A stretch of 64,000 nucleotides of DNA from the NCBI GenBank assembly GCA_002507175.1, contig DAZE01000020.1:5872-69871 (forward strand), in the 5' to 3' direction. The notes under the pieces are model-generated. The model saw nothing but the letters and a program-made list of their open reading frames with translations. It made no database searches and was not told the DNA's origin. This document shows, piece after piece, positions 41,178 to 61,900 of the stretch. The translations under genes were made by a program, and so were the position numbers. The DNA is from Euryarchaeota archaeon UBA558 (GTDB lineage: Archaea > Thermoplasmatota > Poseidoniia > Poseidoniales > Thalassarchaeaceae). Within the stretch, counting starts at the first letter, position 1, and each line of letters starts with the position of its first letter.

Positions 41178-44100
41178 TCAGGAGCACCCTGTTGTTGAAC
41201 CACAGGCATTGCACTTCAGACAAGTTCCATTTCGCACCATCTGACTGCTCCCACACTCATCGCAGATGTCTCCAGTAAAACCTCTCTCCCTGGCCAATCT
41301 CCTCGTTTTCGTGACCTCATCTTCATCAGTTTCTAGAGTCGAGGAGGTCAGGGTCATTTGCACTTCTCTCTTCTCCCCCTGATGCCTGAGCAGACCATCA
41401 TCTGTAGGGACTGGCCTGCTGATCGAGGTGGTTTCCAGATCCTCTTCAGATACGTGAGCCAAGTCATTCCTGTCTAGATATTGAATCGCGAGTTCTCTGA
41501 AAATGTAGTCTACGATGCTTGTGGACATCTTCACTCTTCCACTACCACCCTGAACCATTCCACTCGGTTCGAATTTTTGGAATGTGAAGGACTTCACGAA
41601 GGCATCTAGCGGCACTCCGTACTGCAAACCAATTGATACGGCAATGGCAAATTGATTCAACATGGACCTCCAGGCTGCGCCCTCCTTCGAGGTCGTTATC
41701 ATAATCTCCCCTAGTCTGCCATCTTCATACTCGCTGGATGTGAGGTAGACTGTGTGTCCTCCAACACGTGATTTTGTGGTTTTTGATGAGCGTACGTCTG
41801 GAAGGGCCTTCCTCGCTGCTATGAAGCTCTGAACAACATTCTCCGCGATAGGCCGAGCTAGATCATCTGGGACAGGTATCGCCTTGACAGCATCCTCGAC
41901 CATGGTCTGTACTGCTCCAGACGAGTCTTCCTCCTCGAGTATGGAGGTATCAACTATCTGACTCATCAAGGGTTGGGACAGTTTACTTCCATCTCGATAG
42001 ACTGCACAGGCTTTGTTCATTGTGCTGTGACTTAGCTCATATGCCTCACGTATATCATCGATTGAAGCTGAGGCGGGCATGTTGATTGTTTTGGAAATCG
42101 CGCCTGAGATGAATGGCTGGGCAGCCGCCATCATTAGAACGTGGGCTTGCCAATCAATGGACCTCGTACCGTGCTTGCCGCATGGTGTGGCGCAATCGAA
42201 TACAGCTAAGTGTTCTTCTTTTAGTCCGGGGGCCCCCTCGATACTCCCATATCCGAAGATTACGTCATTTGCCCGCTCGATGTCTTCGGGAGAAAGGCCG
42301 ATGTGAGCCAGGGTATCGAAGAATACGTTCTGACAATCTTCATCCGACATAGTCAAGACAGTCTTGCAGAAATCATCTCCCAACACCGATGGAGAAAAGG
42401 CCGATCTAATGTCAAAAACATCTGGCATCGAGGACTCTATGTTTGATAGAACCTCGTCTGTGAACCCCTTTTCTTTCAAAATTCGGGGATCGAGGCCGGG
42501 GCTGCCTGAAAGTCGTCCAGTCCCCATGATGTGGTCTACGATCGAAGTGACCTCTGAATCCGTGTAGCCTAATCGCTTCAGTGCACTCGGGACCCCTCTG
42601 TTGATTATTCTGAGCGTCCCACCTCCTGCTAGTTGCTTGTACTGCACCAGTGAGAATTGTGGCTCGACCCCAGTTGTATCAGCAGCCATAACCAGGCCTA
42701 TGGTTCCAGTTGGAGCGATGACGGTGGTCTGAGCATTTCTGTAACCGTATTCCTCCCCCCCTTGCACCGCTCGATCCCAAGCAGATTTTGCGGCATCCAA
42801 GAGATCGCTGGGACATCGTTTTGCGTCTATTCCCATGGGGGTTATGGTTAGACCCTCGTATTCGCTTCCTTTCGCATCATAAGCCGCTCTCCTGTGGTTC
42901 CTCATCACTTTGAGCATGTGATCAGCATTCTCGTGATATTTCGGGAACGGCCCTAACGAACCTGCGAGTTCTGCCGATGTGGCATAGGACTCACCACACA
43001 TGATCGATGATAATGCTCCACACACTGCGTAAGCTCGGTCATCCGCATATGGCAACCCCATGTGCATTAGAAGAGACCCCAAGTTGCAGTACCCGAGACC
43101 TAATGTCCTGTATTCGTATGATTTCCTGGCAATCTCTTCAGAAGGAAACTGAGCCATCAGGACACTGATCTCTAGCGTCATCGTCCATAGCCTCACGCTG
43201 TGTTGGAATGATGGAATGTCGAACTTTTGAGCATCGGTGTCGAAGTAGTGCAACAGGTTGATGCTCGCGAGATTACATGCTGTATCATCTAAAAACATGT
43301 ATTCTGAACATGGGTTTGACCCATTGATTCGTCCACCCTCTGGGCACGTATGCCACTCGTTTATGGTAGTATCAAATTGTACGCCTGGGTCAGCACATGC
43401 CCAAGCAGTGTAGGCAACCTTGTCCCAGAGTTCTTTGGCAGGCATGGACCTACAGGGCGTGGGTTCCCTGCCACTCTCATTGGCGTTCTTCAGCTCAGTT
43501 CTATGATAAAGGTTCCAAGTCCCATCGTTTTCCAGAGCATCCATGAATGAGTTTGGTACACGGACCGAGTTGTTGGAGTTCTGCCCAGAGACGGTGCCAT
43601 AACCTTCACCCTGCCAGTCTGTATCCATCTTATCGAAATGGATCGATTTCCATCCCTGTTCTGCAAGGTCCAAGAATCTCTTGACGTGAGAATTGGGAAC
43701 ATGGTTCTTTATCGCCTTAGCGGCAGCCTTCTTCAATTCTAGATTGTCATTCATGTCAAGCTTGTTACCTTTGCCGTCGAAGCTCCATATTGCATCCATG
43801 ATTGCGTCGGCATGACCCTGTAGCAGATTAGATCCAATAACCAAGGCAGAAACCTTCTCTTCCTCGGATAACTTCCAATCTATGTATTCCTCGATATCGG
43901 GATGGTCCAGATCTAATGTGACCATCTTTGCAGCTCTTCTCGTGGTGCCACCGGATTTTATAGCACCAGCAGCCCTATCTCCAATTTTTAGGAATGAAAT
44001 TAATCCACTTGAGGTGCCACCTCCTGAGAGTGGCTCCCCTGAACCCCTTATGTTTGAGAAGTTTGAACCTGTTCCTGATCCGTATTTGAACAATAGTGCT

Positions 44101-44879
44101 TCCCGGTTCCAGAGCCCCATTATTGAGTCTGTGCCACCAACCAGCGAGTCTGAGACAGATTGAATGAAGCAGGCATGTGGCTGGGGGTGTTCATATGCAT
44201 TCGTAGAGGTCATCAGTTCTCCGGTTGACGGGTCGATGTATCGATGACCCTGGGCAGGTCCCTCTATCCCGTAGGCCCAATGCAATCCTGTGTTGAACCA
44301 TTGAGGGCTGTTTGGCGCTGATCGCTGGCTGGCGATCAAGTAGCACATTTCGTCAAAGTAGGCCCTTGCGTCTGCTTCGGCTGCGAAGTAGCCATGCTTC
44401 CATCCCCAATATGTCCACGTTCCAGCCAAGCGACGGAATAGCTCTCTACCGTGACTTTCACCAATGAACCTTTTTTCGGGATCCAGAGATTGTAGTTTCT
44501 CATGATCTGGTTCGCTCCTCTGTAACCATGTTGGTACTCCCTTCTCTTTCACCCTGCGTAGTATCGCTGGAACCCCAGCTTTTCTGAGGTACTTCTGGGC
44601 AAGCACCTTCCCTGCCACCCCAGAGAAGCCCGAAGGCAATCTGACGTCATCTATCCTGTGTGCGAGAGACCCATCAGCATTCCGAATCTCGACGTCCATC
44701 TCTATCCAATCGAATTGATCGAAGGGGTCTTCCCCGACCGTCGTGAACCGTCTTTCAATGACTAATCCGGTTTCAATCGGCCCTTCTGAATTCTTGCCTC
44801 CTTTTTCAGTTCTGGTCTGCATAGTATCGTCTTCCTTGTCACCCTCCGCCCCGATAACCCAGAGCGAGGGATTCAACAT
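41178..44879 (-). CDS. nrdJ: Adenosylcobalamin-dependent ribonucleotide reductase (class II, NrdJ)
   Basis: TACNLASINL, NPCSEY and C-terminal zinc ribbon CDECGSSQMVRNGTCLKCNACGSTTGCS. Alternative start ATG at 44822. Confidence 0.95.
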   Translation of the reverse strand: MLNPSLWVIGAEGDKEDDTMQTRTEKGGKNSEGPIETGLVIERRFTTVGEDPFDQFDWIEMDVEIRNADGSLAHRIDDVRLPSGFSGVAGKVLAQKYLRKAGVPAILRRVKEKGVPTWLQRSEPDHEKLQSLDPEKRFIGESHGRELFRRLAGTWTYWGWKHGYFAAEADARAYFDEMCYLIASQRSAPNSPQWFNTGLHWAYGIEGPAQGHRYIDPSTGELMTSTNAYEHPQPHACFIQSVSDSLVGGTDSIMGLWNREALLFKYGSGTGSNFSNIRGSGEPLSGGGTSSGLISFLKIGDRAAGAIKSGGTTRRAAKMVTLDLDHPDIEEYIDWKLSEEEKVSALVIGSNLLQGHADAIMDAIWSFDGKGNKLDMNDNLELKKAAAKAIKNHVPNSHVKRFLDLAEQGWKSIHFDKMDTDWQGEGYGTVSGQNSNNSVRVPNSFMDALENDGTWNLYHRTELKNANESGREPTPCRSMPAKELWDKVAYTAWACADPGVQFDTTINEWHTCPEGGRINGSNPCSEYMFLDDTACNLASINLLHYFDTDAQKFDIPSFQHSVRLWTMTLEISVLMAQFPSEEIARKSYEYRTLGLGYCNLGSLLMHMGLPYADDRAYAVCGALSSIMCGESYATSAELAGSLGPFPKYHENADHMLKVMRNHRRAAYDAKGSEYEGLTITPMGIDAKRCPSDLLDAAKSAWDRAVQGGEEYGYRNAQTTVIAPTGTIGLVMAADTTGVEPQFSLVQYKQLAGGGTLRIINRGVPSALKRLGYTDSEVTSIVDHIMGTGRLSGSPGLDPRILKEKGFTDEVLSNIESSMPDVFDIRSAFSPSVLGDDFCKTVLTMSDEDCQNVFFDTLAHIGLSPEDIERANDVIFGYGSIEGAPGLKEEHLAVFDCATPCGKHGTRSIDWQAHVLMMAAAQPFISGAISKTINMPASASIDDIREAYELSHSTMNKACAVYRDGSKLSQPLMSQIVDTSILEEEDSSGAVQTMVEDAVKAIPVPDDLARPIAENVVQSFIAARKALPDVRSSKTTKSRVGGHTVYLTSSEYEDGRLGEIMITTSKEGAAWRSMLNQFAIAVSIGLQYGVPLDAFVKSFTFQKFEPSGMVQGGSGRVKMSTSIVDYIFRELAIQYLDRNDLAHVSEEDLETTSISRPVPTDDGLLRHQGEKREVQMTLTSSTLETDEDEVTKTRRLARERGFTGDICDECGSSQMVRNGTCLKCNACGSTTGCS

Positions 44880-46818: not shown

Positions 46819-47688
46819 TCAAGCCATGGCTGCGGTAGCCTTCTTGGCTCCCATCCATGCTACTACACCGAAACCGATCTTGTTGATCATGTCAGCGATG
46901 TTGTATAGAACGCCCATTAGCTCCTGGTTGCCGTCTAGTAGATTGGCCTCAGGGCTGTACAAGTAGCCGATTGGGTAGATGACCCACCCTACGACTATGA
47001 ACATCCTTAGTGCGTTAAGGCTCCACTCTAGTTCGGCCTTCACCTTGCTGTTGTCGATACCCTTTGGCTCCATCATTCCGAATGGATCTCCGACTGCAAC
47101 AATGATCATTGCCCAGCCCACACCGCTCAATATCAAGCAGATTAGACCAGCGGAGTCACCGAATGTGCCATCCATGAGGCCTGTCTCGCCGGCGAATCCC
47201 CAGCCAATCATCCAAACTGCACCGAAGAAACACACGTTTGCGAATCCTCCGATTCCTGGGATCTTAGCGTCGGTGATAGCATCCTTCCCCACCAAGCTTG
47301 GGAACTTGAGAGCCATCAGCGGGACTGTGATGAGCCAGTCCATGTATCTGTAGTGGACGCTAACTATTCCATCCTCGACATAGGCGCCACGCATGTAGTA
47401 GTAGTGGAACGCTGCGATACCCACAATTAGTGCGGAAATCGTCATTGTTGTCCTGTACTCTTCAGCAACGCTGTTTCGCTCCATGACGAAGAAGATGAAC
47501 GCCGCTCCCATCGAAATGTACCCGACGAAGAAGAGGAAGAAGGTCAATAGAGCCATTCCCTCGTAGTCGTTTGGGTTTGCGTATTCCGATGCGGATGCAG
47601 TGGACAGTCCCAGTACTCCCAGCGTCATCAGGGCGAGTATTGGGGCACTCATTCTCAGGCCATTTTTGTAGGATGGATTAAGATCCAT
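46819..47688 (-). CDS. Proteorhodopsin-family microbial rhodopsin (DTK motif)
   Basis: Helix C RYMDWLITVPLMALKF, FHYYYMRG (PR-type His), helix G YNIADMINKIGFG with the Schiff-base Lys, and seven hydrophobic helices. Confidence 0.95.
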   Translation of the reverse strand: MDLNPSYKNGLRMSAPILALMTLGVLGLSTASASEYANPNDYEGMALLTFFLFFVGYISMGAAFIFFVMERNSVAEEYRTTMTISALIVGIAAFHYYYMRGAYVEDGIVSVHYRYMDWLITVPLMALKFPSLVGKDAITDAKIPGIGGFANVCFFGAVWMIGWGFAGETGLMDGTFGDSAGLICLILSGVGWAMIIVAVGDPFGMMEPKGIDNSKVKAELEWSLNALRMFIVVGWVIYPIGYLYSPEANLLDGNQELMGVLYNIADMINKIGFGVVAWMGAKKATAAMA

Positions 47689-47763: not shown

Positions 47764-48444
47764 TTGCCTCGCTCGGCCATGGACAACCCAAGGGAACTAC
47801 TCCTGTCACTTTCTGATGCTGCCGCTGGAACTGACAATCCACTTTCTTGGTTTGAAGACCTTTATTCCAGAGCAAATAGGGATGATAGCTGGATTCCATG
47901 GTCTGATGGAAATCCCAATCCACTGTTGGTTGACTGGGTGATCGGGCAACCTGCGGGGAAAGCATTAGTTGTTGGCTCAGGACTAGGGGAAGATGCTGCG
48001 TTTCTAGAAAAAAAGGGATGGCAGGTAACGGCTTTCGACATCTCAGAAACTGCGATAAAATGGTCTTCGGACAGGTACAGTCACACGTCTGTTTCTTGGA
48101 TGGTAGCTGACCTGCTGAACCTTCCTCCAGAGTTGTGCGGTGACTTTGATTTGGTACTTGAAGTCCACATCTTACAGGCCATGCCCGTCGAACTAAGGAA
48201 AATAGCCTCACAAAAACTAGCCCCCCTGGTATCAGAAAACGGTTTCTTGGTCTGTATTGGACGCTATGCTACAGAGGACGATCTTACTATCGGGCCACCA
48301 TGGCCATTGAGCTATTCATTTATTGAGTCCATAGGCGCGAGTCTCGGTGAAATGAGCTTGAAGAAAATCAGGCTTGAGTCCGATGATAGTTCCGTTTCCC
48401 GCTACAGGGCTATTTGGAGACGAACGAAAATTAAGAACGATTGA
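47764..48444 (+). CDS. SAM-dependent methyltransferase (TPMT-like class I)
   Basis: ALVVGSGLGEDAAFL (motif I), VTAFDISETAI (acidic post-beta2) and a Trp-rich N-terminus as in thiopurine-MTase-like proteins. Alternative ATG at 47779. Confidence 0.75.
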   Translation: MPRSAMDNPRELLLSLSDAAAGTDNPLSWFEDLYSRANRDDSWIPWSDGNPNPLLVDWVIGQPAGKALVVGSGLGEDAAFLEKKGWQVTAFDISETAIKWSSDRYSHTSVSWMVADLLNLPPELCGDFDLVLEVHILQAMPVELRKIASQKLAPLVSENGFLVCIGRYATEDDLTIGPPWPLSYSFIESIGASLGEMSLKKIRLESDDSSVSRYRAIWRRTKIKND

Positions 48445-51400
48445 TGGACTTGGTAATCTGGTCGGCATTTTCGACCACCACAAATCCGTATTGTTCCTCG
48501 AGCGACCTTCTTATCATACGAAAATCTGAATCTCTCGTGGCCACCAATACAGAACCGACGTCCCGGAGCTTCGGCGATATGCTGCTCGAATAAGAAGCCA
48601 AACTAGCTGCATCGATGATTATCTGTCGATCCCCCTCCTCGGGGTAGATCGCCTTACCATTAATCACGGATCTTGATGGCTCGTCATCTCTTCTTTGCCG
48701 CTTGCTTTCATCTATTTTCGCAAAGATGTTTGAGTGGCTTTCGAGGAAGTTGCTAAGACTACTAATGATCGAATTGTCCTGCTCGAATGCAAGATTGACC
48801 CCACTGAATACCTCAATGACATAATTTCGAATTTCCTCTATCCCTGCATTTTCTATAGATGACCATAAGCCTTGGTCTTGGTATTCGCCGTGAAAAAGCC
48901 TCTTTGAGGTAGAGACGTCGCGTGTTCTATTGGAAAACTCCTTCATAACTGATTCTGGTAAGTAGGTTTTGATCGACCCTGCGTCTTTCTGTCTTCTCAA
49001 TGCCCATTGAAACGCTCTTTCCAGGGACCAATCCAGATTACCCAAACCATAAGGTGAACCCCGCTTGATCAATTCGTCTTTGAATGCGTCAATTAGCAAG
49101 TTGGTGTCTACAATGACAAGCGGTTTCAAACTTGTTATGTTGAAGGTTCTTCGGTCCTTGATAGGTATGGAAGACTCCAATGTGGTGAACATAGACCTTT
49201 GAGATCGCCGAAGTCTTCTGACTCCCTCCTCATCGAAACCCCCGTGATTAATTGCAGATTGGAACATTCTCAATCCAGAAAGTGGCTTTCTCTCAGCCTG
49301 TTCTTGTGCAATTAAGGATATTTCAAGCACGTCCCTCCCCTTCTGCAATTCCTCTTTTAGTCGCCTCTCAAGTCTATCTTCATTCCTGCGCCCTGGCCTA
49401 TCAAGCCTCTTTAATGCCGCCTTTACCCGGCCTTCGAAAGGATCACTCGGAAGTCCTAACTCATCTGGATAAGTCCTCAATCCGTTAATTTCCTGGGTCT
49501 TTTCTTCTTGATCCATATCCGAAGCATATCCCAACACTAGATTGGTCGCAACGTCGCTTCTGCCCTTGTCGTATTCACTACAAACTCTGAGAAATAATTG
49601 AAACCTTCGGGTTATCGCAGCCATCAATTCGGCATTTCGATCAATTAGGTCAACAGCCTGTTTCCATGCTTTGGCGTGTGCGAAGTGAATCAGTGCCATC
49701 CGCCGAAGTTGTGTAGTTCTCTCAAACCTTTGAGGCTCCAATCGCCTCGCAGCCTCTAGGAAACATCTTCCTGCATTCAGATGGTCTCCTTTACCGATCG
49801 AGATAGCGGCTCTCACTATCTGTGAACCAGATGAATCGGGAGCATGTTCTCGATACCATTCTTCCATTACGGGGAGGGCTATATGGTATTCTTCTATCAT
49901 TTCAGAGATTGATATCACCAATTGTATGGATAACCGTCCTTCATTGACAATCGAAACGAGAGTATCGGTCGCGGACCTCTTTTTGTCTTCGTCTTGCATT
50001 TGTAATTCAATTCTCGCTCTGTTCAGCCGTAGCAAGGTGATCAAGGAATCAAAAAGGGAAGACTCAATGTCACCTAGGCTTGAATTATCGGCAGCGGTAA
50101 TCAATTGCTCTATGCTATTTTCCCTCACTATGCCCGTTCCGTCCTCCAATAGGGCCCTTCTAGTTTGATTCAAGGCCTTGATTCCAGTCGTGCCAAGCCT
50201 ATCATGAAGGGCATTGAGGTCATGGGAGAATCCGTTTATTACAGCTAGCAATGCCACAGAAACCTCGGAAAGACAAGGATCCTCAATCCTTTCTAAGGCC
50301 TCTATCGATTTCTTTCTGAGGTCGACCATCCTGTCCATTTTGTTGATCCCGATTCTTGCCGACAAAAGGTGCCATACGAGCAACCCCCGCATTGGGTTTC
50401 TAACAACCGCTTCTCCGACAAGAATTTCGGATAGCAGCTTTATTTCATTTCCTTCGGTTGCTATGTCGGACAAGACTTCCAAATGGCCTGCTTTCAGACC
50501 TCTGGCAATGACCTCTTTAGCCACTATAGTCCTGATTTTTACCGATTTTGAACCATCATATAGTATCTCGATCAACCCTGATGAGTCTATTTTTTTTGCA
50601 CTTTCGGAAGCCATTTCCATCAAATCCTTATCATTCCCAGAAAATCTTCCCACTGCAATTAGCACGTCGATCGGCCACATTGGACGGCCAAGAATGACTT
50701 CTCGAGCCCCATCAAGTCGATTTCCGTCAATCAGTTTCGATGCAATCATGAAACTCAACTTAGCCGGCCAAGCCGAACCGTGACTGTCCAACAAGTCCCC
50801 ACCTCCCGTAAGTGCATCTAGGTCTAGATCTAAATCTGGGAGACTCACGGCCCGCCAGGCCTCAATTATCACAGCGTAGGATAGCCTACTCTCAGGCTCT
50901 TTTTTGATCCACGAGGCCACGTCTTCTTCACTTTTGGAATGTCGGAACGAGTTTAGAGTCAGATACAGTGTTGCTATCTTCTTGAGATCCGGGTCGCTAG
51001 AAGCAGTTCTGAATAACGCTTCGGCGTCCTCGCCAATCGATGCCATCATTATGCCGACAAAGAGGGATCCTACACCCGTATCCGTACCAAAATCTCCAAT
51101 TTGCTTCTTGACCCTGCGCGAGTCCACTTTCGTTGAATACTCACGCCTCAACATGAGAAGTGATTTTCTCTGTTTCTGGGATAGCTTCATTGGAGGATCG
51201 ATTGATAGCCAATCATGCAATGCGGAATGGTCGATTGGATCAAAATTGGCCTTTTCCAACCATGTTTCGATATTCGACTCCGCATTTGAGACTTCCAGTA
51301 CCGGGAACCTACTCAATTCAGCGAAGATCGGAGCCTCTCTGGCCAACCTCTCCCAAGCTGGATGAACACCCTCATCGCACCTCTTTCTGACATCAGAGGC

Positions 51401-51739
51401 GTCTCTTGTGTCTTTCATTACATCGGATTGTAATAATATGTATCTGCAGAGACGAAAAGCAGGGTTGTCTTCTTCCTCGTCTCCAATAATCGCTTCCCTT
51501 GGATCTGAGGTCGATCGGCGAACCCTTCTGCCGGCACGTCGAGAGGATTTCTTGGATTCAGATCCATTATCGTCTTGACGCTCAGGACTGGTTTTCGCCG
51601 CAGCGATCCTCACTAGAGCCCTCCACGATTTCGGCAACTCCTCATATCCAACCGTACGAGAAACCTTCCTCAATCGCGCTCTCTCATCATCACCTGCAGA
51701 GGACAGTGCCTCCAGGCATTCAAGGAGTTGAGATTCCAT
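48431..51739 (-). CDS. Large helical-repeat protein with a C-terminal PIN-like nuclease domain
   Basis: The last 231 aa (48434..49126) carry the four PIN acidic positions in order: LVIVDTNLLID, PESVMKEF, IIIDAASLA, VATRDSDF. The preceding roughly 870 aa are alpha-helical-looking with no recognised motif. Confidence 0.75.
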   Translation of the reverse strand: MESQLLECLEALSSAGDDERARLRKVSRTVGYEELPKSWRALVRIAAAKTSPERQDDNGSESKKSSRRAGRRVRRSTSDPREAIIGDEEEDNPAFRLCRYILLQSDVMKDTRDASDVRKRCDEGVHPAWERLAREAPIFAELSRFPVLEVSNAESNIETWLEKANFDPIDHSALHDWLSIDPPMKLSQKQRKSLLMLRREYSTKVDSRRVKKQIGDFGTDTGVGSLFVGIMMASIGEDAEALFRTASSDPDLKKIATLYLTLNSFRHSKSEEDVASWIKKEPESRLSYAVIIEAWRAVSLPDLDLDLDALTGGGDLLDSHGSAWPAKLSFMIASKLIDGNRLDGAREVILGRPMWPIDVLIAVGRFSGNDKDLMEMASESAKKIDSSGLIEILYDGSKSVKIRTIVAKEVIARGLKAGHLEVLSDIATEGNEIKLLSEILVGEAVVRNPMRGLLVWHLLSARIGINKMDRMVDLRKKSIEALERIEDPCLSEVSVALLAVINGFSHDLNALHDRLGTTGIKALNQTRRALLEDGTGIVRENSIEQLITAADNSSLGDIESSLFDSLITLLRLNRARIELQMQDEDKKRSATDTLVSIVNEGRLSIQLVISISEMIEEYHIALPVMEEWYREHAPDSSGSQIVRAAISIGKGDHLNAGRCFLEAARRLEPQRFERTTQLRRMALIHFAHAKAWKQAVDLIDRNAELMAAITRRFQLFLRVCSEYDKGRSDVATNLVLGYASDMDQEEKTQEINGLRTYPDELGLPSDPFEGRVKAALKRLDRPGRRNEDRLERRLKEELQKGRDVLEISLIAQEQAERKPLSGLRMFQSAINHGGFDEEGVRRLRRSQRSMFTTLESSIPIKDRRTFNITSLKPLVIVDTNLLIDAFKDELIKRGSPYGLGNLDWSLERAFQWALRRQKDAGSIKTYLPESVMKEFSNRTRDVSTSKRLFHGEYQDQGLWSSIENAGIEEIRNYVIEVFSGVNLAFEQDNSIISSLSNFLESHSNIFAKIDESKRQRRDDEPSRSVINGKAIYPEEGDRQIIIDAASLASYSSSISPKLRDVGSVLVATRDSDFRMIRRSLEEQYGFVVVENADQITKSINRS

Positions 51740-51776
51740 GTTGTGATGCTCCGCAAACTTGCTCCGGAGATGAGGC

Positions 51777-52778
51777 CTACATCAACACATCGTCGTCATC
51801 GACAATCCTGGCATTCCACATCTTGAGCCATTCGCTAATGTTTTGCTCGATGTCATGTTGTTCAATTCGCCTCTCAACCGGCAGACCGTTTTCTAGGGGC
51901 TTAATTCTACAGCCACAGGCATCTCGATGTCCACCCCCATCTACATCAAATCTTGTGGCCAATTTCGTGAGGTCGAATAGGCCACCATTCTTATGAAGAA
52001 ACGAGTTTGTGTAAAATGAGGCCGAGACGGGATAATCCAGACCGTTGTCGAAGGAACCATCTAATGAGCCATGTATGATCATGCATGCATCACAATCATC
52101 ACCAGCAAACGCAGTGATTGCGTAGCCGTTTGATCTCATTCCAAGGTCATTCATCTTCACTATTGCCATTCGGTCGATGATCTCAACTCTACCCTCTATC
52201 TCCCTCGCGAGGATCTCATTTTCTGTTTTCCTTGTGGATATCGCATCTGAAACAAGCACATCGCTAACGATGTCAACAATACTGTATCCCTCAGTAAAAA
52301 GCTCCAGGACTCTCAAGGCCACACCCTCTGAGACACCCAAACAACGGCCTATCCAAACCATCGGTTCATCAGACAGATATTCGTTTCTTGTGATATCACC
52401 GCTGTCCAGTTTATCCGTCCAATACAATGCGCTTTCTAGATCACTCAGATCTATTCTATCTTTGAATAAATTAGCCGCAACCCTTGCCGCAGATGGTGAG
52501 GACCCCCAGATTCTATTAGCAGGCCATTCATTTTCCGAAGGCTTATTCGATAGGTGATGATCAATTGAAAGCCCACAACTTGGGTGATAAGGAAGATCAC
52601 AAATAGCAGTTGATGAGTCTATCCAATAGTCGAGCATTCCGTCTTTTAGTGCACCGGGATGTCCAAACTTAACCTTTGCATCTGGAAATGCCCTTAGGAG
52701 GATCGCTCCGCACAAAACTCCGTCGAGATCACCATCTGTGAGGATTTTCTCCACCTTGAGTTCTGATAACCAGCTCAT
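51777..52778 (-). CDS. DHH/DHHA1 family phosphoesterase (nanoRNase/pAp-phosphatase-like)
   Basis: TDGDLDG (motif I), ICDL, SIDHH (DHH motif) and DVDGGGH (DHHA1 GGGH). 333 aa. Confidence 0.8.
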   Translation of the reverse strand: MSWLSELKVEKILTDGDLDGVLCGAILLRAFPDAKVKFGHPGALKDGMLDYWIDSSTAICDLPYHPSCGLSIDHHLSNKPSENEWPANRIWGSSPSAARVAANLFKDRIDLSDLESALYWTDKLDSGDITRNEYLSDEPMVWIGRCLGVSEGVALRVLELFTEGYSIVDIVSDVLVSDAISTRKTENEILAREIEGRVEIIDRMAIVKMNDLGMRSNGYAITAFAGDDCDACMIIHGSLDGSFDNGLDYPVSASFYTNSFLHKNGGLFDLTKLATRFDVDGGGHRDACGCRIKPLENGLPVERRIEQHDIEQNISEWLKMWNARIVDDDDVLM

Positions 52779-52855
52779 GCACTCCGGGCCTCACCATAGG
52801 ATGTATTGGTTCCGCTTCCGAAGAGTTTTATCCTTGAAGAATCATCGGATAAAAC

Positions 52856-53263
52856 ATGGAAACCTCATGCGGTTTTGTTTTACTGAATCACAGCAGCATA
52901 CTTCTGTTGCAATACCCCCAAGGGCACTGGAGCTTTCCCAAGGGGCACGTCGAAGATGGAGAGGACCACCACACAACTGCTAGAAGGGAGTTGCTAGAAG
53001 AGACAGGAATCAGTGAACTGACCATAGTCCCTGGATGGACTAGGCGAACCGAATACACCTATTCCCGCCGTGGCTCACCCATGAAGAAGCAAGTGTTCTG
53101 GTATCTTGCAACAACTGAAGAGTTCATGGTCAAGTTGTCACATGAGCACACAAACTTCCTCTGGCTGGATCTAAACAGGGCAAAGGAACAGCTCACATTC
53201 GATCAAGAGAAGGTCATATTGAGTGAAGCAGGCCAATTTGTCGCTGAGATTGGTTTGATGTGA
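52856..53263 (+). CDS. Nudix hydrolase (Ap4A hydrolase / RppH-like size class)
   Basis: Nudix box GHWSFPKGHVEDGEDHHTTARRELLEETGI. 135 aa. TTTTATCC about 25 nt upstream of the ATG. Confidence 0.9.
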   Translation: METSCGFVLLNHSSILLLQYPQGHWSFPKGHVEDGEDHHTTARRELLEETGISELTIVPGWTRRTEYTYSRRGSPMKKQVFWYLATTEEFMVKLSHEHTNFLWLDLNRAKEQLTFDQEKVILSEAGQFVAEIGLM

Positions 53264-55982: not shown

Positions 55983-58900
55983 GTGGGTATGATAGCAGAT
56001 TTTGGTAGAAGGAGAGAAGTGAGTAGATCCCTGTTCCTTGTTGTTCTGATGGTAGCAAGTTTACAGACGCCGACCTTGGCCGCAACAACCACAGGTACCT
56101 CTGATAATCACAGTCCATACGAGTCTCCGCCCCAGATCCAAATTCAATCTGAGGATATCGACACTACGACAAATTATGCCCCCAATTTTGCGATGCTTCC
56201 TGACCATCCAGCCTTCAAAGACGCATCATGGTCTGACCCAGGCTTACTTTACGGGAGAATAACTGACATCTCCTTCTTGGACGAGGGATACAGATTCATG
56301 GTTGAAGAGACCGAAACGGAGGACCATGATAATGACGGAATCAACGACCTTGATGATTTGGATGATGACAACGATGGGATTTCAGACCTCATAGAGCGGT
56401 TTGATGGATGCTTCGGAACAGACCCATATGACCATGACAATGACGGTTTGAAAGATGAGTTTGACTTTGATGACGATAATGACGGTATTTTGGAGGGGCC
56501 TATCGACTATTCACAGGGCACAGATCCTTGGAATGTCAGCACTGATCGATACGTGGACCCCCAGACTACCCATCCCTGGACGGGCCTCCCAGTGGGAACT
56601 GGATACTTGGTAGATCAGGATCCATACGACCACGACAACGACGGGGTCCCTGACGAGGATATAGATGGGTCAGGAAAAGGGTCCTATGACGAAGATGATG
56701 ATAATGACGCCAGAATTGACCAATTCGTCTGGCCCTGTGACTTTGATGGCGATGGCCTTCAGGACTACTGGGATGCAGATGACGATAATGATGGCGTGAT
56801 CGATATCTGGGACACACATCCATGGAACAGTTCTGAAACTCGGAACATAACTGCTACCGCGCAGAACTGGAGCGCCGCTGAATCATGGGCATCTAGCAAA
56901 ACTCACCAGGTATCCATAACCGAAAACGGGTACTCAACACCTAATTTGGCCATAGAGATCGGAGACTCGGTTAGGTGGACAAATGACGATATCGAGAACC
57001 GTACTGTGACGGCAGCAGACGGCTCATTCGACAGCGGCATAATCCCCCCCGGCGGATTCTTCGTCCACTTGTTTGAAAATGAGGGCCAGACAAGATATTC
57101 CGAAACAGCAGGAACAGGTGTTGGAGATGGAACAATTACTACAAATGCTGCAACTGGCTTGCCCTTCCCAGACGCATTCAACCTCGACTTCGATACATAT
57201 GGTAAAGAGAAGCTCGACTTCGCCTTCAAGGAGCAAAATCTATGGCATCCTCGGAATCCTGCATTCGATCAGATTGTTGACGGAGATCTGGATGGCGACG
57301 GATTACCCAATTTCATCGATCCCGATAATGACAATGACGGAACACCTGATTCCGCGGACACTGATGACGATAACGATGGCTTGCTGGACATGTGGGACAT
57401 AGACGATGACAACGATGGCATCCCAGATAACTGTCTGAATGTCCTTGGCCCACAAGATAACATGGAGGGCTTCTCAGAATACTTTGGCCAAACTCCTGGA
57501 GTTGATTGTGAGATCGACTATGACAGGGACGCCGACGACGATGCCTACAGAGCGATCGATTCGGACTATGATTTGGTTTGGGATTGGAAGGACACAGATC
57601 TTGGCGCAGCAGATCCTGCAGATAACCTACTCGGAAATCCATCCTTAGATCCGAACGACCTGCCTTATGATTTGGACAATGATGGAATTTTGAATCAGGA
57701 CGATCCATATCCCATGGTGCATTCCGATGTAATTGATACCTGGAACTGCGAGTCGCTGCAGAACCCGAATCCAGTGAACCCAGACCCTAGGTGCTTAACA
57801 GAGCGAAAATCGTACACAGGAAACAACGATTGGGACGGCGACGGCTTCTCTAACTGGGAGGACGTCGATGATGACAATGACGGCGTTCTGGACTGGCTGG
57901 ACATAGATGAGAACTGCGATCTTGATGACGATAACGATCTTCATCTCCTAAACGGTTCCAGATACCGGGACGATGGTCCCAACGCCATTGATACTGACAT
58001 TGATGGCGATGGCCTGTCAAATGATGAGGATTGGGATGATGACAATGACGGAATATCCGACCTGTACGACCCAGACGACGGGAATTGCGGTGTAGTGGAC
58101 ATTGATTCCACCGATCAATTTGACAACTCGTATTCTCACCAAGACGGCGACATCATAGACGGTAGCGCCGATAGTCAAATCTATGTCGGCACAGGGACAC
58201 TGCAATGGGATATGTTCTGGCACTTTAGCCCATTTTTCGTAGATCATGGATTCGTTCTTCCATACAATGGATACCAAGATGACTTCACATTTGGACCTCC
58301 TACGATCGTTTCCAATGGAAATGTCCCAGAGATGTATTGGCATGTCATGATGAAATGGAGCCCATGGAATGGCAACAACTACTTTGACCTCGATATGGAT
58401 GGAGACTCTTTGATCAATGGTATCGATGTTGACATAGACGCTGATGGCGTCCCAAATTGGTGGGACAGGGATGAGGGCTCCGACGGAAGACTGGATGTGA
58501 ACGATCCAGCATATGGTGGCTCATTGGATGACGGAGAATGCGACTTGTCCATGTCTTTCCTGTTGGGTCTGGACGACGATCAAATTAGCTGTGGCATAGC
58601 CTTGGCATGGCTCTATGGATTCCCACTCAGTCAGGCTAGATCCAGTAATGGTGTCCCATTCGTCCTACCATATTCCTCTAGGCCAGATCCACTCTACACT
58701 GATGGCCCATACAACGGAGAGAATTCTGCTGGTATTAATGACTTCACCTGTGAAACCAACTGCTTTCACTTCGATTTCCTCGGCCCTGCAGACGCAGGCC
58801 CTTCCGCTGCCGTGACATTTGATGACATGATCAACAACAGGGACCTGTGGACGGCCTACGTTGGAATTAATTTTGGCATGTTCCAATGGGTCTCCGACGG

Positions 58901-61900
58901 GAACGGGAACCTCTTCCCAGATGAATTCGCGGACCTGTTGAATAACAATGAAGATCCTGATGACGATTGTGGAGCCCCCGTCACAGGAACTCCAAATCCA
59001 TCATGCATGGTTAACGATACAGCCGATCTAGATGACGATTTCGACGGCGTTTTCGACCATTGGGACGTTGACGATGACAACAATGGCGTTTGGGATTTCT
59101 TCGAGGTTGACGTCAACGATGACTTGGATGATGATACCAACACGGAACCCCTGGGGAACTTTTTCACCGGATACAACTGCGATGATCAGGACGATGACGG
59201 TACGGATACAGATCCCGATGGGGATGGTTGGTACCAATCGGTTTGGGATCGAGGCAGATTAGGACAGGGATTGCTCTTCCCCCAATATTACGACGTCGAC
59301 AATGACAACGATGGCGTCCCGGACGGGGAGGACCCCGATGACGACAACAACGGAGTCTTGGACACCGACCAGGAATTGATTTGCTTCCAAGGGGAAGAAC
59401 AGAGCCCATGGGACCACGACAATGACGGTATTCCAGATTGGGCAGACACGGATTGGGATGGCGACGGCTTATCCAATACCATCGAGCTTGCTGGTGGGGG
59501 AGCCTCCCATCCAATCGCCCCATGGGACCACGACAACGATGGCCTTCGTGATGACATTGATCTCGATGATGATGAAGATGGCATGAACGATGAAGACGAG
59601 GTGATGCTTTGGCCAACGAGGTTCAACTCCAATTCAACAAATCCCTGGGATCATGATGATTACGGAACCGGGTCAGGAATTTATGATCCAACAAACGCAT
59701 CCACGGGTCCAGACGCTCAGGATGAAGATGACGACTCAGATGGCATACCAGATATCGATTGGGACCACTTGGAGGAGAACGAACTATGCACCGACTCAAG
59801 CGGAGCTCTATACCCTGCAAGTGATTGGGACAATGACAACGATTGCATATTAGATGCAGACGACAAACCACCCACCAGAATTACGCTCAATCCAATCCAA
59901 ACTGTCTGGTTAGACGCCCAATTCCCTGCAGTATTTACCGGTCGCGTGGATGTTCTCGATATGGAGACCGGAGCATTTGTTCCCGGAACAGACCTACCCG
60001 TTAGAATAGTGATTGAATACGCAAGGAACTCGACTGAGGCCCTACGAACAGTGGAGGTTCTTACGAACGAAATGGGGAATTTCACAGTAGGACAATACCT
60101 CTATCCAGAGGATATTGAAGTAGGTCCATCCTCTATGTACAACCTTCGTGCTGATGTGATAGAGATGTTTGCCCACGACGGGTCGTCTTCAACCCCCGTC
60201 CCCCTACAGGTCAGGGGAAACACGACCGTCGATTACGTATCCTGGACTTATTTCAGGAGTGACGAACAACCCCTCTTTGTGGATTTCAAGGTGCATTATG
60301 ACGCAGATTGGCAGAGGGGTATATTTGACAATAGAATAAAACACGCTCCAGTCTCATTCACAGTCGCCGGAGGTCCATTCGGAAACCGCACGGAACCTAC
60401 TATGTTTGATGGATACGGATTCGGATACAGGGCCGACTCAAACGGTTGGGTGTCCCTCACTTTCGTCCAACAACAGGGTGCTCAAGGTTTCTGGAAACAG
60501 GTTCGATGGAACTCCACCATGGACAACGGTGTGGGGCAACCCAGCGGCGGATACGAGGAAATTGTGTGGGACGACAACGCAAAGGAACATCAATACGTGT
60601 CAAGATACGAATATACGAACACATCTTTGCCAGTCGGAGATTATGAGTTCATAGGCTTCTCGAAACCAGATTTGGGAGCTGAGTGGCCCTTCCCATACCT
60701 CAACGGCAGCGAATCAGAGACATTCTACATACGCTCAATGCACAGAATGTACATCGAGGCCGTCATACACACGACCTCATTGAGACCCGTTTACTTCTGG
60801 GATGCCACCCAATTTATCGGATCGTCTTTCGGCGCATGGAGGGCTCTATTCCACGCTCCATCACTTCAAGCAGCAGACATATCCTTTGAGAATGCCAGCA
60901 TTGGCAAGCCATACCCCATCCTTTGGGATGGAACATCGGCAGGGCTTACTGGTGAGGCTGCTAAGCTGAGGCCCTTCCTTTCGGCCAATCTGACTCATTG
61001 GTCTATAGCAATGCAAAATGGAGGAGACTTCAACGCCCCACCATGTGGACCCGCAAACCCAGCGGATCCATTCAGTCAAACTCGTTGTGAGATTATGCCA
61101 GAATTATTTACTGGTGAGTCACTCAGGGTGGTAGGGGAAGTTTACAATCGAACCTTTGTACCATGGTCTAGCGACCCGATTGCCTTGCAGGTCGATCTCG
61201 ATCAAAACCTAATATTCTCTGGCGCCCAAGAAACTGGTTTCGCCAGGGTGCCAAACATGATTGATGGCAAAGCAAAGTTTGACTACAACTGGACATGGTA
61301 CTCACAGTATGCAGCGGGCACATACGGCATCAAGGCAGATTTCACGAACTCCAATTTCTACTTCACGGGCAATCAATCATCCGTTTTGTCCGCCACTGGA
61401 GCCTACGTCAACGTTTCAGTAATCGGAACGAGCCAATTTTTACCGATTGAGGACTCCCGTCTATATCGCGGAGTAAACAGAACCGTGGAAGTGAGGCTGG
61501 TGGATAACTCCCTGCAACCACTGAGGGAGGTCCCAGTCACATATTCGTGGAACGCAGACGGCACCAATGGACTGACATCAACCGACAAAAATGGAATATT
61601 CAGGGTCAATCTCTCAACCGGACAGAATCACCCTCTAGGTGCATTCACACTCAGCTATGAATACACAGGAGACGCTTTCCACCAATCCTCGACAGGTCAG
61701 ACGGAACTATGGGTCGTTTCTCGAACCTTCATCGACCTACAATCCAGCGTCTCTGGAGCATTAGTGAGCGGTCAAGACTGGTTCTTCACAGCCCAGGTGA
61801 CCGATGACAATCGAACTGCATTTACGAAGGACTCAGGACAGGCATTGGATGGGTGCGAGGAAAACGGAGGAAATATCACTTTGATTCTGGAAGGATTAGA

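Follow-up and report, generated by a model that had tools for sequence, protein, structure and literature searches.

The placement side by side of three genes in the archaeon UBA558 (Thalassarchaeaceae), which code for a Nudix hydrolase, a DHH/DHHA1 phosphoesterase (hereinafter, the DHH protein) and a large protein with a long helical region and a probable C-terminal PIN-like domain (hereinafter, the PIN-fusion), is ordinary backbone synteny. Our analysis of the 64,000-nucleotide stretch that carries them (contig DAZE01000020.1, positions 5,872 to 69,871 of the forward strand; hereinafter, the window) uncovered no evidence for a dedicated RNA-turnover or signaling system. With a probability of about three in four, these are separate constitutive nucleotide/RNA housekeeping genes that lie next to each other through the gene-order conservation of the Marine Group II (Poseidoniales) archaea. 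An earlier, sequence-only reading of the window had proposed that they form an RNA-turnover/signaling module, with the Nudix gene transcribed divergently from a DHH–PIN operon. Its primary observations were borne out: the three open reading frames, the 37-nt and 77-nt spacers between them and the quoted motifs are all in place and, since each frame has many homologs, they are real genes and not chance open reading frames. What did not survive comparison with related lineages is the grouping of these genes into a functional unit.

This comparison covered about 100 related loci, 80 of which were contributed by a metagenome scan; the names attached to the homologs include Thalassarchaeaceae and the Marine Group II fosmid HF70_19B12. 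Clustering of the PIN-fusion proteins at ≥70% identity yielded 21 lineage clusters, which were supplemented by two clusters featuring only the DHH gene, and the retention of each gene junction was counted over these 23 clusters, where assessable. The neighbors of the trio in the window include genes for a rhodopsin, a PduO-type cobalamin adenosyltransferase (CobAT), SPOUT and TPMT-like methyltransferases, an isocitrate dehydrogenase (ICDH) and a class II ribonucleotide reductase (RNR). We found that all nine genome loci with a PIN-fusion (46–94% identity) follow the gene order of the window for ~23 kb, namely, Big surface protein, PanD, SPOUT methyltransferase, hypothetical protein, transmembrane protein (TM), CobAT, Nudix, DHH, PIN-fusion, TPMT-like methyltransferase, rhodopsin, ICDH, OsmC and RNR. 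Across the surveyed loci as a whole, the collinear block reads SPOUT–hypothetical–TM–CobAT–Nudix–DHH–PIN-fusion–ICDH–OsmC–RNR, and even distant PIN-fusion homologs with just 26–34% identity are still found within the same backbone. The trio sits inside a ~23-kb collinear stretch of functionally unrelated genes.

The retention of individual junctions tells against a specific association of the DHH and PIN-fusion genes. To the left of the trio, the SPOUT–hypothetical junction was intact in 13/14 clusters, hypothetical–TM in 16/16, TM–CobAT in 16/17 and CobAT–Nudix in 17/17, with the Nudix–DHH junction itself intact in 16/17; to the right, ICDH–OsmC was intact in 10/10 and OsmC–RNR in 9/10. The DHH–PIN-fusion junction, by comparison, was intact in just 14 of 22 clusters. 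Thus, the junction of the proposed "operon" is one of the less stable ones of the block. Conservation of the neighborhood beyond synteny was the measure by which the module proposal had asked to be judged, and it fails by that measure because its key junction is kept less than the flanking junctions of unrelated genes.

The region upstream of the PIN-fusion gene displays four arrangements across the 21 clusters. First, in four clusters, including that of the window, the DHH gene lies directly upstream on the same strand with a gap of about 40–130 nt, and within the window's clade the two genes are 37–41 nt apart. Second, in ten clusters a small gene on the opposite strand intervenes (DHH> <DUF4079-like PIN-fusion>), with 550–650 nt between DHH and PIN-fusion. 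Third, in two clusters the DHH gene is found 3 kb or 8.8 kb upstream. Fourth, four clusters have no DHH gene within 4.7–10 kb upstream. In the one remaining cluster, the sequence upstream of the PIN-fusion gene was too short for scoring. The claimed DHH–PIN operon, accordingly, comes down to same-strand direct adjacency in 4 of the 20 assessable PIN-fusion clusters, which is not the pattern of a conserved operon; six clusters either have the DHH gene 3 kb or more from the PIN-fusion or lack it over the stretch scored.

Individual loci illustrate this fluidity. In L016/17, the order is CobAT, Nudix, DHH, a 165-aa gene on the opposite strand, PIN-fusion, methyltransferase, ICDH, OsmC and RNR; L020 shows the same order up to the PIN-fusion, where the contig ends. 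In L018, the DHH gene is directly upstream of the PIN-fusion, and in L021 it is separated from it by an MMPL gene and a 157-aa opposite-strand gene. L014 features CobAT, Nudix, two MMPL genes, a 155-aa opposite-strand gene and the PIN-fusion, with no DHH gene. The 8.8 kb between DHH and PIN-fusion in L087 is occupied by genes for a quinolinate phosphoribosyltransferase, a phosphopantothenate synthetase, Iso_dh, GcvH and RNase H, that is, genes of NAD, CoA and leucine metabolism and of glycine cleavage, plus RNase H. Conversely, L010–L013 (DHH identity 53–56%) keep the left block through the Nudix–DHH junction and have no PIN-fusion within 10 kb downstream; there, the DHH gene is followed by genes for a small membrane protein, an acetyltransferase, an aminotransferase, an S-adenosylmethionine decarboxylase, a deoxyhypusine synthase and an enolase. 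Hence, the expected co-localization of the three genes breaks down in both directions: the DHH and Nudix genes occur without a nearby PIN-fusion and the PIN-fusion occurs without a nearby DHH gene.

The most constant neighbor of the PIN-fusion turned out to be the small opposite-strand gene, which is homologous across lineages and shows a match to DUF4079 (E = 1.6e-5). It codes for a small membrane protein of ~125–170 aa and is found immediately upstream of, and divergent from, the PIN-fusion with a gap of 81–131 nt in 17/21 clusters. It is missing from the window's clade, with no trace of it in the window at 51740–51776, and from L018. The commonest order, and the one seen in the most divergent lineages, reads CobAT> <Nudix DHH> <DUF4079-like PIN-fusion>; it yields two gene pairs that diverge from separate promoter regions. 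If this order is ancestral, the window's clade would have lost the DUF4079-like gene, bringing DHH within 37 nt of the PIN-fusion. The two genes may be co-transcribed in that clade, judging solely from a 37-nt gap that lacks an A/T-rich box; the best explanation for any such co-transcription is a recent, lineage-specific by-product rather than a conserved operon.

Several points weigh against reading the locus as plain synteny of independent genes. The DHH and PIN-fusion genes are no more than one gene apart in 14/22 clusters, with PIN-fusion identity reaching down to ~27%, and weak selection for their proximity may still be at work. That nucleotides or nucleic acids are the predicted targets of all three proteins is a coincidence, if a suggestive one. 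Further, the lineage clusters are phylogenetically non-independent samples, and the surveyed contigs are metagenomic, with gene absence scored within 3–10 kb.

The strongest of the competing explanations, to which we give perhaps a third of the credence of the housekeeping interpretation, couples only the Nudix and DHH genes: they would share a bidirectional promoter and clear dinucleotides (Ap(n)A and pNpN, or pAp), with the PIN-fusion being unrelated to them and paired with the DUF4079-like protein. The high retention of their divergent adjacency, which has spacers of 77–276 nt across clusters and survives the absence of the PIN-fusion, speaks in its favor, as does the equally divergent pairing of the DUF4079-like and PIN-fusion genes. 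The Nudix/DHH spacer itself holds a perfect 9-bp inverted repeat and a 23-nt G+C-rich motif, which together could constitute a bidirectional promoter or operator. The TATA-like element that had been pointed out in this spacer has a counterpart in A/T-rich elements, which are the arms of the inverted repeat. The repeat is kept in the closest relatives only, and the 23-nt motif is recognizable in L001–L009, down to 60% DHH identity. A scan for sigma-70 promoters and terminators yielded 9 and 8 sites, which is no excess over shuffled sequence (7.9 and 5.6, respectively), the non-sigma-70 types expected in an archaeon lying outside its reach, and an Rfam scan of the window recovered two tRNAs only, with no structured RNA in the spacers. 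Against the coupling of the pair stands the observation that the CobAT–Nudix and hypothetical–TM junctions are just as conserved without an obvious functional link, and L014 retains Nudix without DHH. Because junctions of this kind are equally conserved, adjacency in this region is weak evidence, and we favor the housekeeping interpretation over this pairing.

The activities predicted for the three proteins bear on the remaining alternatives. The Nudix protein is recognized by the Pfam model PF00293 (E = 3e-18, 66.5 bits against a cut-off of 21.1), and its translation displays the Nudix box (GX5EX7REUXEEXGU) as G30-HVEDG-E36-DHHTTAR-RELLEETGI. Its top nine PDB matches are Ap4A/Ap6A hydrolases or their close relatives, with human NUDT2 as the best (3u53/1xsa; E = 1e-19 over residues 13–132) and the Aquifex aeolicus Ap4A hydrolase 3i7u, Caenorhabditis elegans 1kt9 and Thermus thermophilus Ndx1 as further relatives. 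Like NUDT2 and the other asymmetrical Ap4A hydrolases, it is a small, single-domain protein that shares the Nudix box and aligns with them end to end, including the C-terminal LSHEH..WL segment. Scores against the NCBIfam equivalog models were all far below their cut-offs; those for RppH reached 36.8 bits at best against a cut-off of 118, which argues against RppH membership. By these homologies, the gene is an ordinary NUDT2-type member, in keeping with the Ap4A-hydrolase-type assignment made earlier, and the enzyme would cleave dinucleoside polyphosphates (Ap(n)A) and possibly 5'-triphosphate ends.

The DHH protein has no match in Pfam or NCBIfam even at E ≤ 10; the Pfam DHH (PF01368) and DHHA1 (PF02272) models miss the window protein, and its relatives reach only E = 0.038 and 0.1 with them. 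As these models gave no match, homology was established via PggH, the stand-alone DHH/DHHA1 protein VCA0593 of Vibrio cholerae (PDB 7d62), which was recovered with E = 4e-8 in a single-sequence search and E = 9e-18 with a 14-sequence profile, whose positions 11–304 cover chain residues 20–314, i.e., the full length. The motifs TDGDLDG, SIDHH and DGGGH are present in the window and invariant in the homologs. More specifically, D17/D19, D61, D73-H74-H75, D125 and G281-G-G-H284 are invariant in 14 homologs, such that motifs I–IV of the family (DxD, D, DHH, D) and the GGGH of DHHA1 are all accounted for. This full-length relationship and the invariant motifs uphold the initial DHH/DHHA1 call. PggH is a pGpG-specific phosphodiesterase that forms an intertwined dimer, with its Mn2+ ligands and an essential GGGH histidine defined (PMC8861645); D17/D19, D73-H74-H75, D125 and H284 of the window protein pair with its DxD, DHH, DKxD and GGGH motifs, which supply these residues.

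The two proteins are similar in size (333 aa in the window and 324 aa in PggH) and align throughout, but the similarity is distant and the motif II Asp of the window protein is aligned to Asn55 of PggH. Moreover, the cysteine motifs CDAC (229–232) and C-G-C (288–290, part of an ACGC motif), which are specific to this Marine Group II subfamily, and likewise C60 and C68, show no variation among its members and lack an aligned equivalent in PggH; these cysteines might contribute to an additional metal or redox site. The host of the window protein, unlike that of PggH, is an archaeon, and the gene families seen in the examined loci include no c-di-GMP machinery. Taken together, the sequence features point to a divergent, cysteine-decorated PggH-like subfamily that escapes the current Pfam models. 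Its broader relatives are the NrnA/TM1595-type nanoRNases and the CRISPR-associated NrN; the Bacteroides fragilis NrN, a DHH enzyme of type III CRISPR whose closest predicted structural matches include PggH, degrades SAM-AMP (PMC10600005). Since PggH is specific for pGpG and NrN for SAM-AMP, the substrate can be narrowed down only to some small phosphodiester, with a dinucleotide or a nanoRNA as the probable candidates. We infer that the enzyme would be a metal-dependent (probably Mn2+) phosphodiesterase of the PggH/NrnA kind, hydrolyzing dinucleotides or short oligonucleotides that carry a 5'-phosphate, or else a small phosphodiester related to these.

The PIN-fusion is the fastest-evolving gene of the block: in the comparison across L001–L101, its identity is 26–34% where that of ICDH is 73–85%, of RNR 54–80%, of Nudix 48–69% and of DHH 34–56%. 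The window protein shows no match to Pfam or NCBIfam models even at E ≤ 10, and neither a full-length phmmer search of PDB nor one with a profile of the C-terminal domain returned anything relevant. When 1.84 billion representative proteins were searched exhaustively with a profile, 140 matches came up, all of which are full-length (~1090–1170 aa) or fragments thereof, and this establishes a single family with a single architecture. It was found only in loci with a Marine Group II-type gene neighborhood; UniRef labels a member that stems from a Marine Group II fosmid "PIN domain-containing protein". To judge by these searches, the PIN-fusion is an uncharacterized, lineage-specific family. A literature search on Marine Group II PIN domains and Poseidoniales synteny retrieved nothing bearing on this locus.

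Several lines of remote evidence converge on a PIN-like domain at its C-terminus. First, D878, E934, D1037, D1070 and D1072 are invariant in 91–92 of 92 sequences, with the overall identity being as low as ~23%. These acidic residues occupy the PIN-like positions (after β1, at the start of α3, after β3 and after β4), and the secondary-structure order of the model fits as well. Second, members of the family gave sub-threshold matches to the Pfam models PIN, PIN_12, PIN_4, PIN_3 and NYN, all starting in register at β1, with PIN being matched by 7/25 members and PIN_12 by 5/25 (best E = 0.007). Third, an AlphaFold model of the C-terminal 268 residues, built from a 25-sequence alignment, shows a β-α-β core with a ~75-residue helical insertion (pLDDT 89). 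In Foldseek searches of BFVD with this model, the top match was a "PIN like domain" (probability 0.94, E = 0.025), followed by a Medusavirus PIN protein (probability 0.80). Against PDB there was no significant match, the weak ones including Exo1 and a 2qip chain, both of which we take to be PIN-like folds. While no single test is significant by itself, we consider it very probable that this is a PIN-like domain, and the original PIN call holds to that extent.

In the full-length AlphaFold model, residues ~155–860 are all-helical with pLDDT mostly between 75 and 90. The best Foldseek matches are Ski3, IFT-A, Ctr9, Naa15 and spliceosomal HAT/TPR scaffolds (E 1e-4 to 1e-3, with low TM-scores); thus, the modeled solenoid appears to resemble TPR/HAT scaffolds only generically. 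Most likely, then, the PIN-fusion would comprise an α-solenoid scaffold and a C-terminal PIN-like metallonuclease with intact catalytic residues, and it would most likely act as an RNA-processing or RNA-decay endonuclease recruited via its helical repeats. The eukaryotic SMG6/SMG5 and the protein-only RNase P (PRORP), which combines PPR repeats with a NYN domain, are built to the same plan: a long helical-repeat scaffold leads to a PIN-like metallonuclease domain at the C-terminus, in which an acidic tetrad is conserved. The likeness of the PIN-fusion to these is one of architecture and serves as an analogy only: it shows no detectable sequence similarity to either, its solenoid matches are generic, and its PIN-like domain has the above-mentioned helical insertion and lacks significant PDB matches. 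Its β1 motif (V/L)-D-T-N-(I/L)-L-I and its C-terminal (T/S)-R-D-x-D-F motif are similar to those of the VapC/PIN_4 type, as in the VapC-type PIN toxins; however, VapC has ~130 aa as against 1102 aa, and lacks such a large insertion. We reject a VapBC-like toxin–antitoxin role in view of the size of the protein, the lack of an upstream antitoxin gene and a core chromosomal position that is fixed in every lineage.

Given these family assignments, the predicted activities are biochemically compatible with the chain that had been envisaged for the module, in which 5'-end or Ap4A hydrolysis by the Nudix enzyme, endonucleolytic cleavage by the PIN-fusion and nanoRNA clearance by the DHH enzyme are kept together by selection. 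The presence of the three genes within ~5 kb in 14/22 clusters, at PIN-fusion identities of 27–94%, and the tight same-strand spacing of DHH and PIN-fusion in the window's clade are likewise what such a chain would lead one to see. Yet we regard it as unlikely: the junction on which it depends is retained less than those of unrelated genes, an opposite-strand gene separates DHH from PIN-fusion in ten clusters, housekeeping genes break the linkage in six PIN-fusion clusters and the two DHH-only clusters, and the Nudix gene, which lies on the other strand, is bound just as closely to CobAT. More doubtful still is a scenario in which the PIN-fusion is a Poseidoniales-wide RNA-surveillance or -processing endonuclease (an archaeal SMG6 analog) that is partnered with the DUF4079-like protein and, in the window's clade, might be transcriptionally coupled to a product-clearing, nanoRNase-like DHH enzyme.

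PIN nucleases can act as defense effectors. NrN, a DHH enzyme of a similar structural kind, degrades SAM-AMP in type III CRISPR (PMC10600005). An anti-phage defense or abortive infection system, with a PIN nuclease effector under the control of a nucleotide second messenger degraded by the DHH and Nudix enzymes, is nevertheless highly improbable, since neither the PIN-fusion nor the DHH protein has a PADLOC match, the neighbors seen in the loci examined include neither a cyclase, sensor or CRISPR gene nor any other signal generator, and no structured RNA was found; moreover, the genes keep to a single fixed site in a housekeeping backbone even in very divergent lineages, unlike patchy defense islands. 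With the PADLOC result and the genomic context both speaking against a defense system, the parallel that had been drawn to defense loci has no support. The Nudix protein does match the Nudix-type model PDC-S07 (E = 4.5e-8) and the TPMT-like methyltransferase the methyltransferase model mad2 (E = 4e-11) in PADLOC; because of the housekeeping context, we take these as domain-level similarity and not as defense.

Table 1. Coordinates of the features discussed in the text (window positions, except where a locus is given)
Feature	Position	Strand	Remarks
PIN-fusion gene	48431-51739	-	1102 aa open reading frame
Probable PIN-like C-terminal nuclease domain	48431-49132	-	~aa 870-1102; helical insertion; invariant acidic residues, weak profile/fold matches
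Predicted central α-solenoid (TPR-like) scaffold	49160-51277	-	~aa 155-860; AlphaFold model, Foldseek
N-terminal region of PIN-fusion	51278-51739	-	aa 1-154; arginine-rich patch, conserved motif C121..G124.H126-P127.W129; low model confidence
DHH stop to PIN-fusion start spacer	51740-51776	.	37 nt, without A/T-rich box
DHH/DHHA1 phosphoesterase gene, PggH-like stand-alone subfamily	51777-52778	-	333 aa open reading frame
Divergent Nudix/DHH spacer	52779-52855	.	77 nt, inverted repeat and 23-nt motif
23-nt G+C-rich motif	52801-52823		CTTCGGAAGCGGAACCAATACAT
Inverted repeat, one arm	52825-52833		GGATAAAAC
Inverted repeat, other arm	52847-52855		GTTTTATCC
Nudix hydrolase gene, NUDT2-type asymmetrical Ap(n)A hydrolase	52856-53263	+	135 aa open reading frame
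DUF4079-like gene	L016:7459-7956	-	
DUF4079-like gene	L014:9407-9874	-	
DUF4079-like gene	L021:7422-7895	-	
DUF4079-like gene	L087:9425-9931	-	
Class II RNR gene	41178-44879		
Rhodopsin gene	46819-47688	-	
TPMT-like methyltransferase gene	47764-48444	+	14-nt overlap with PIN-fusion gene at 48431-48444
Highly acidic protein gene	55983-63971	+	2662 aa

Other genes of the block displayed features of their own. The rhodopsin gene has a fixed position and comes in two very different types: those of L002 and L004 are 96–99% identical to that of the window, as against 30–34% for L001, L006, L007 and L009. In L001, the flanking genes are 85–97% identical to those of the window despite the divergent rhodopsin (L001:14052-14867 vs L004:14052-14918), a pattern suggestive of the exchange of an allele or cassette at a single locus. 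In lineages further removed, no rhodopsin gene occupies this position. The TPMT-like methyltransferase gene converges with, and overlaps, the PIN-fusion gene, and this convergent pair recurs in distant loci: L019 again shows an overlap, and in L016 the two genes are spaced by 65 nt. Several further lineages (e.g., L083 and L022) have 7–9 kb of other genes between the PIN-fusion and the methyltransferase/ICDH. The class II RNR of L004 shows an interruption of ~330 nt between residues 736 and 737 (L004:19071-19403) that is lacking in the window; a mini-intein or an insertion of some other kind may account for it. Finally, the 2662-aa highly acidic protein, which is conserved across loci at 56–96% identity, features many D-x-D-x-D-G-type repeats reminiscent of calcium-binding sites as well as a transmembrane segment at its C-terminus; it probably serves as an adhesin on the cell surface or as an S-layer-like protein.

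In conclusion, these observations call for caution: with a gene order as well conserved as that of Marine Group II, the adjacency of genes reveals little about their function, even where protein identity is down to 27%. The interest that remains lies in the proteins themselves: on the one hand, a fast-evolving, lineage-restricted family of ~1100 aa from an uncultured archaeal group that ranks among the most abundant in the ocean, which appears to join helical repeats to a PIN-like domain and recalls the logic of SMG6 and PRORP by analogy only; on the other, a divergent, cysteine-decorated PggH-like DHH subfamily. While neither changes the current understanding, both are candidates for biochemical characterization.

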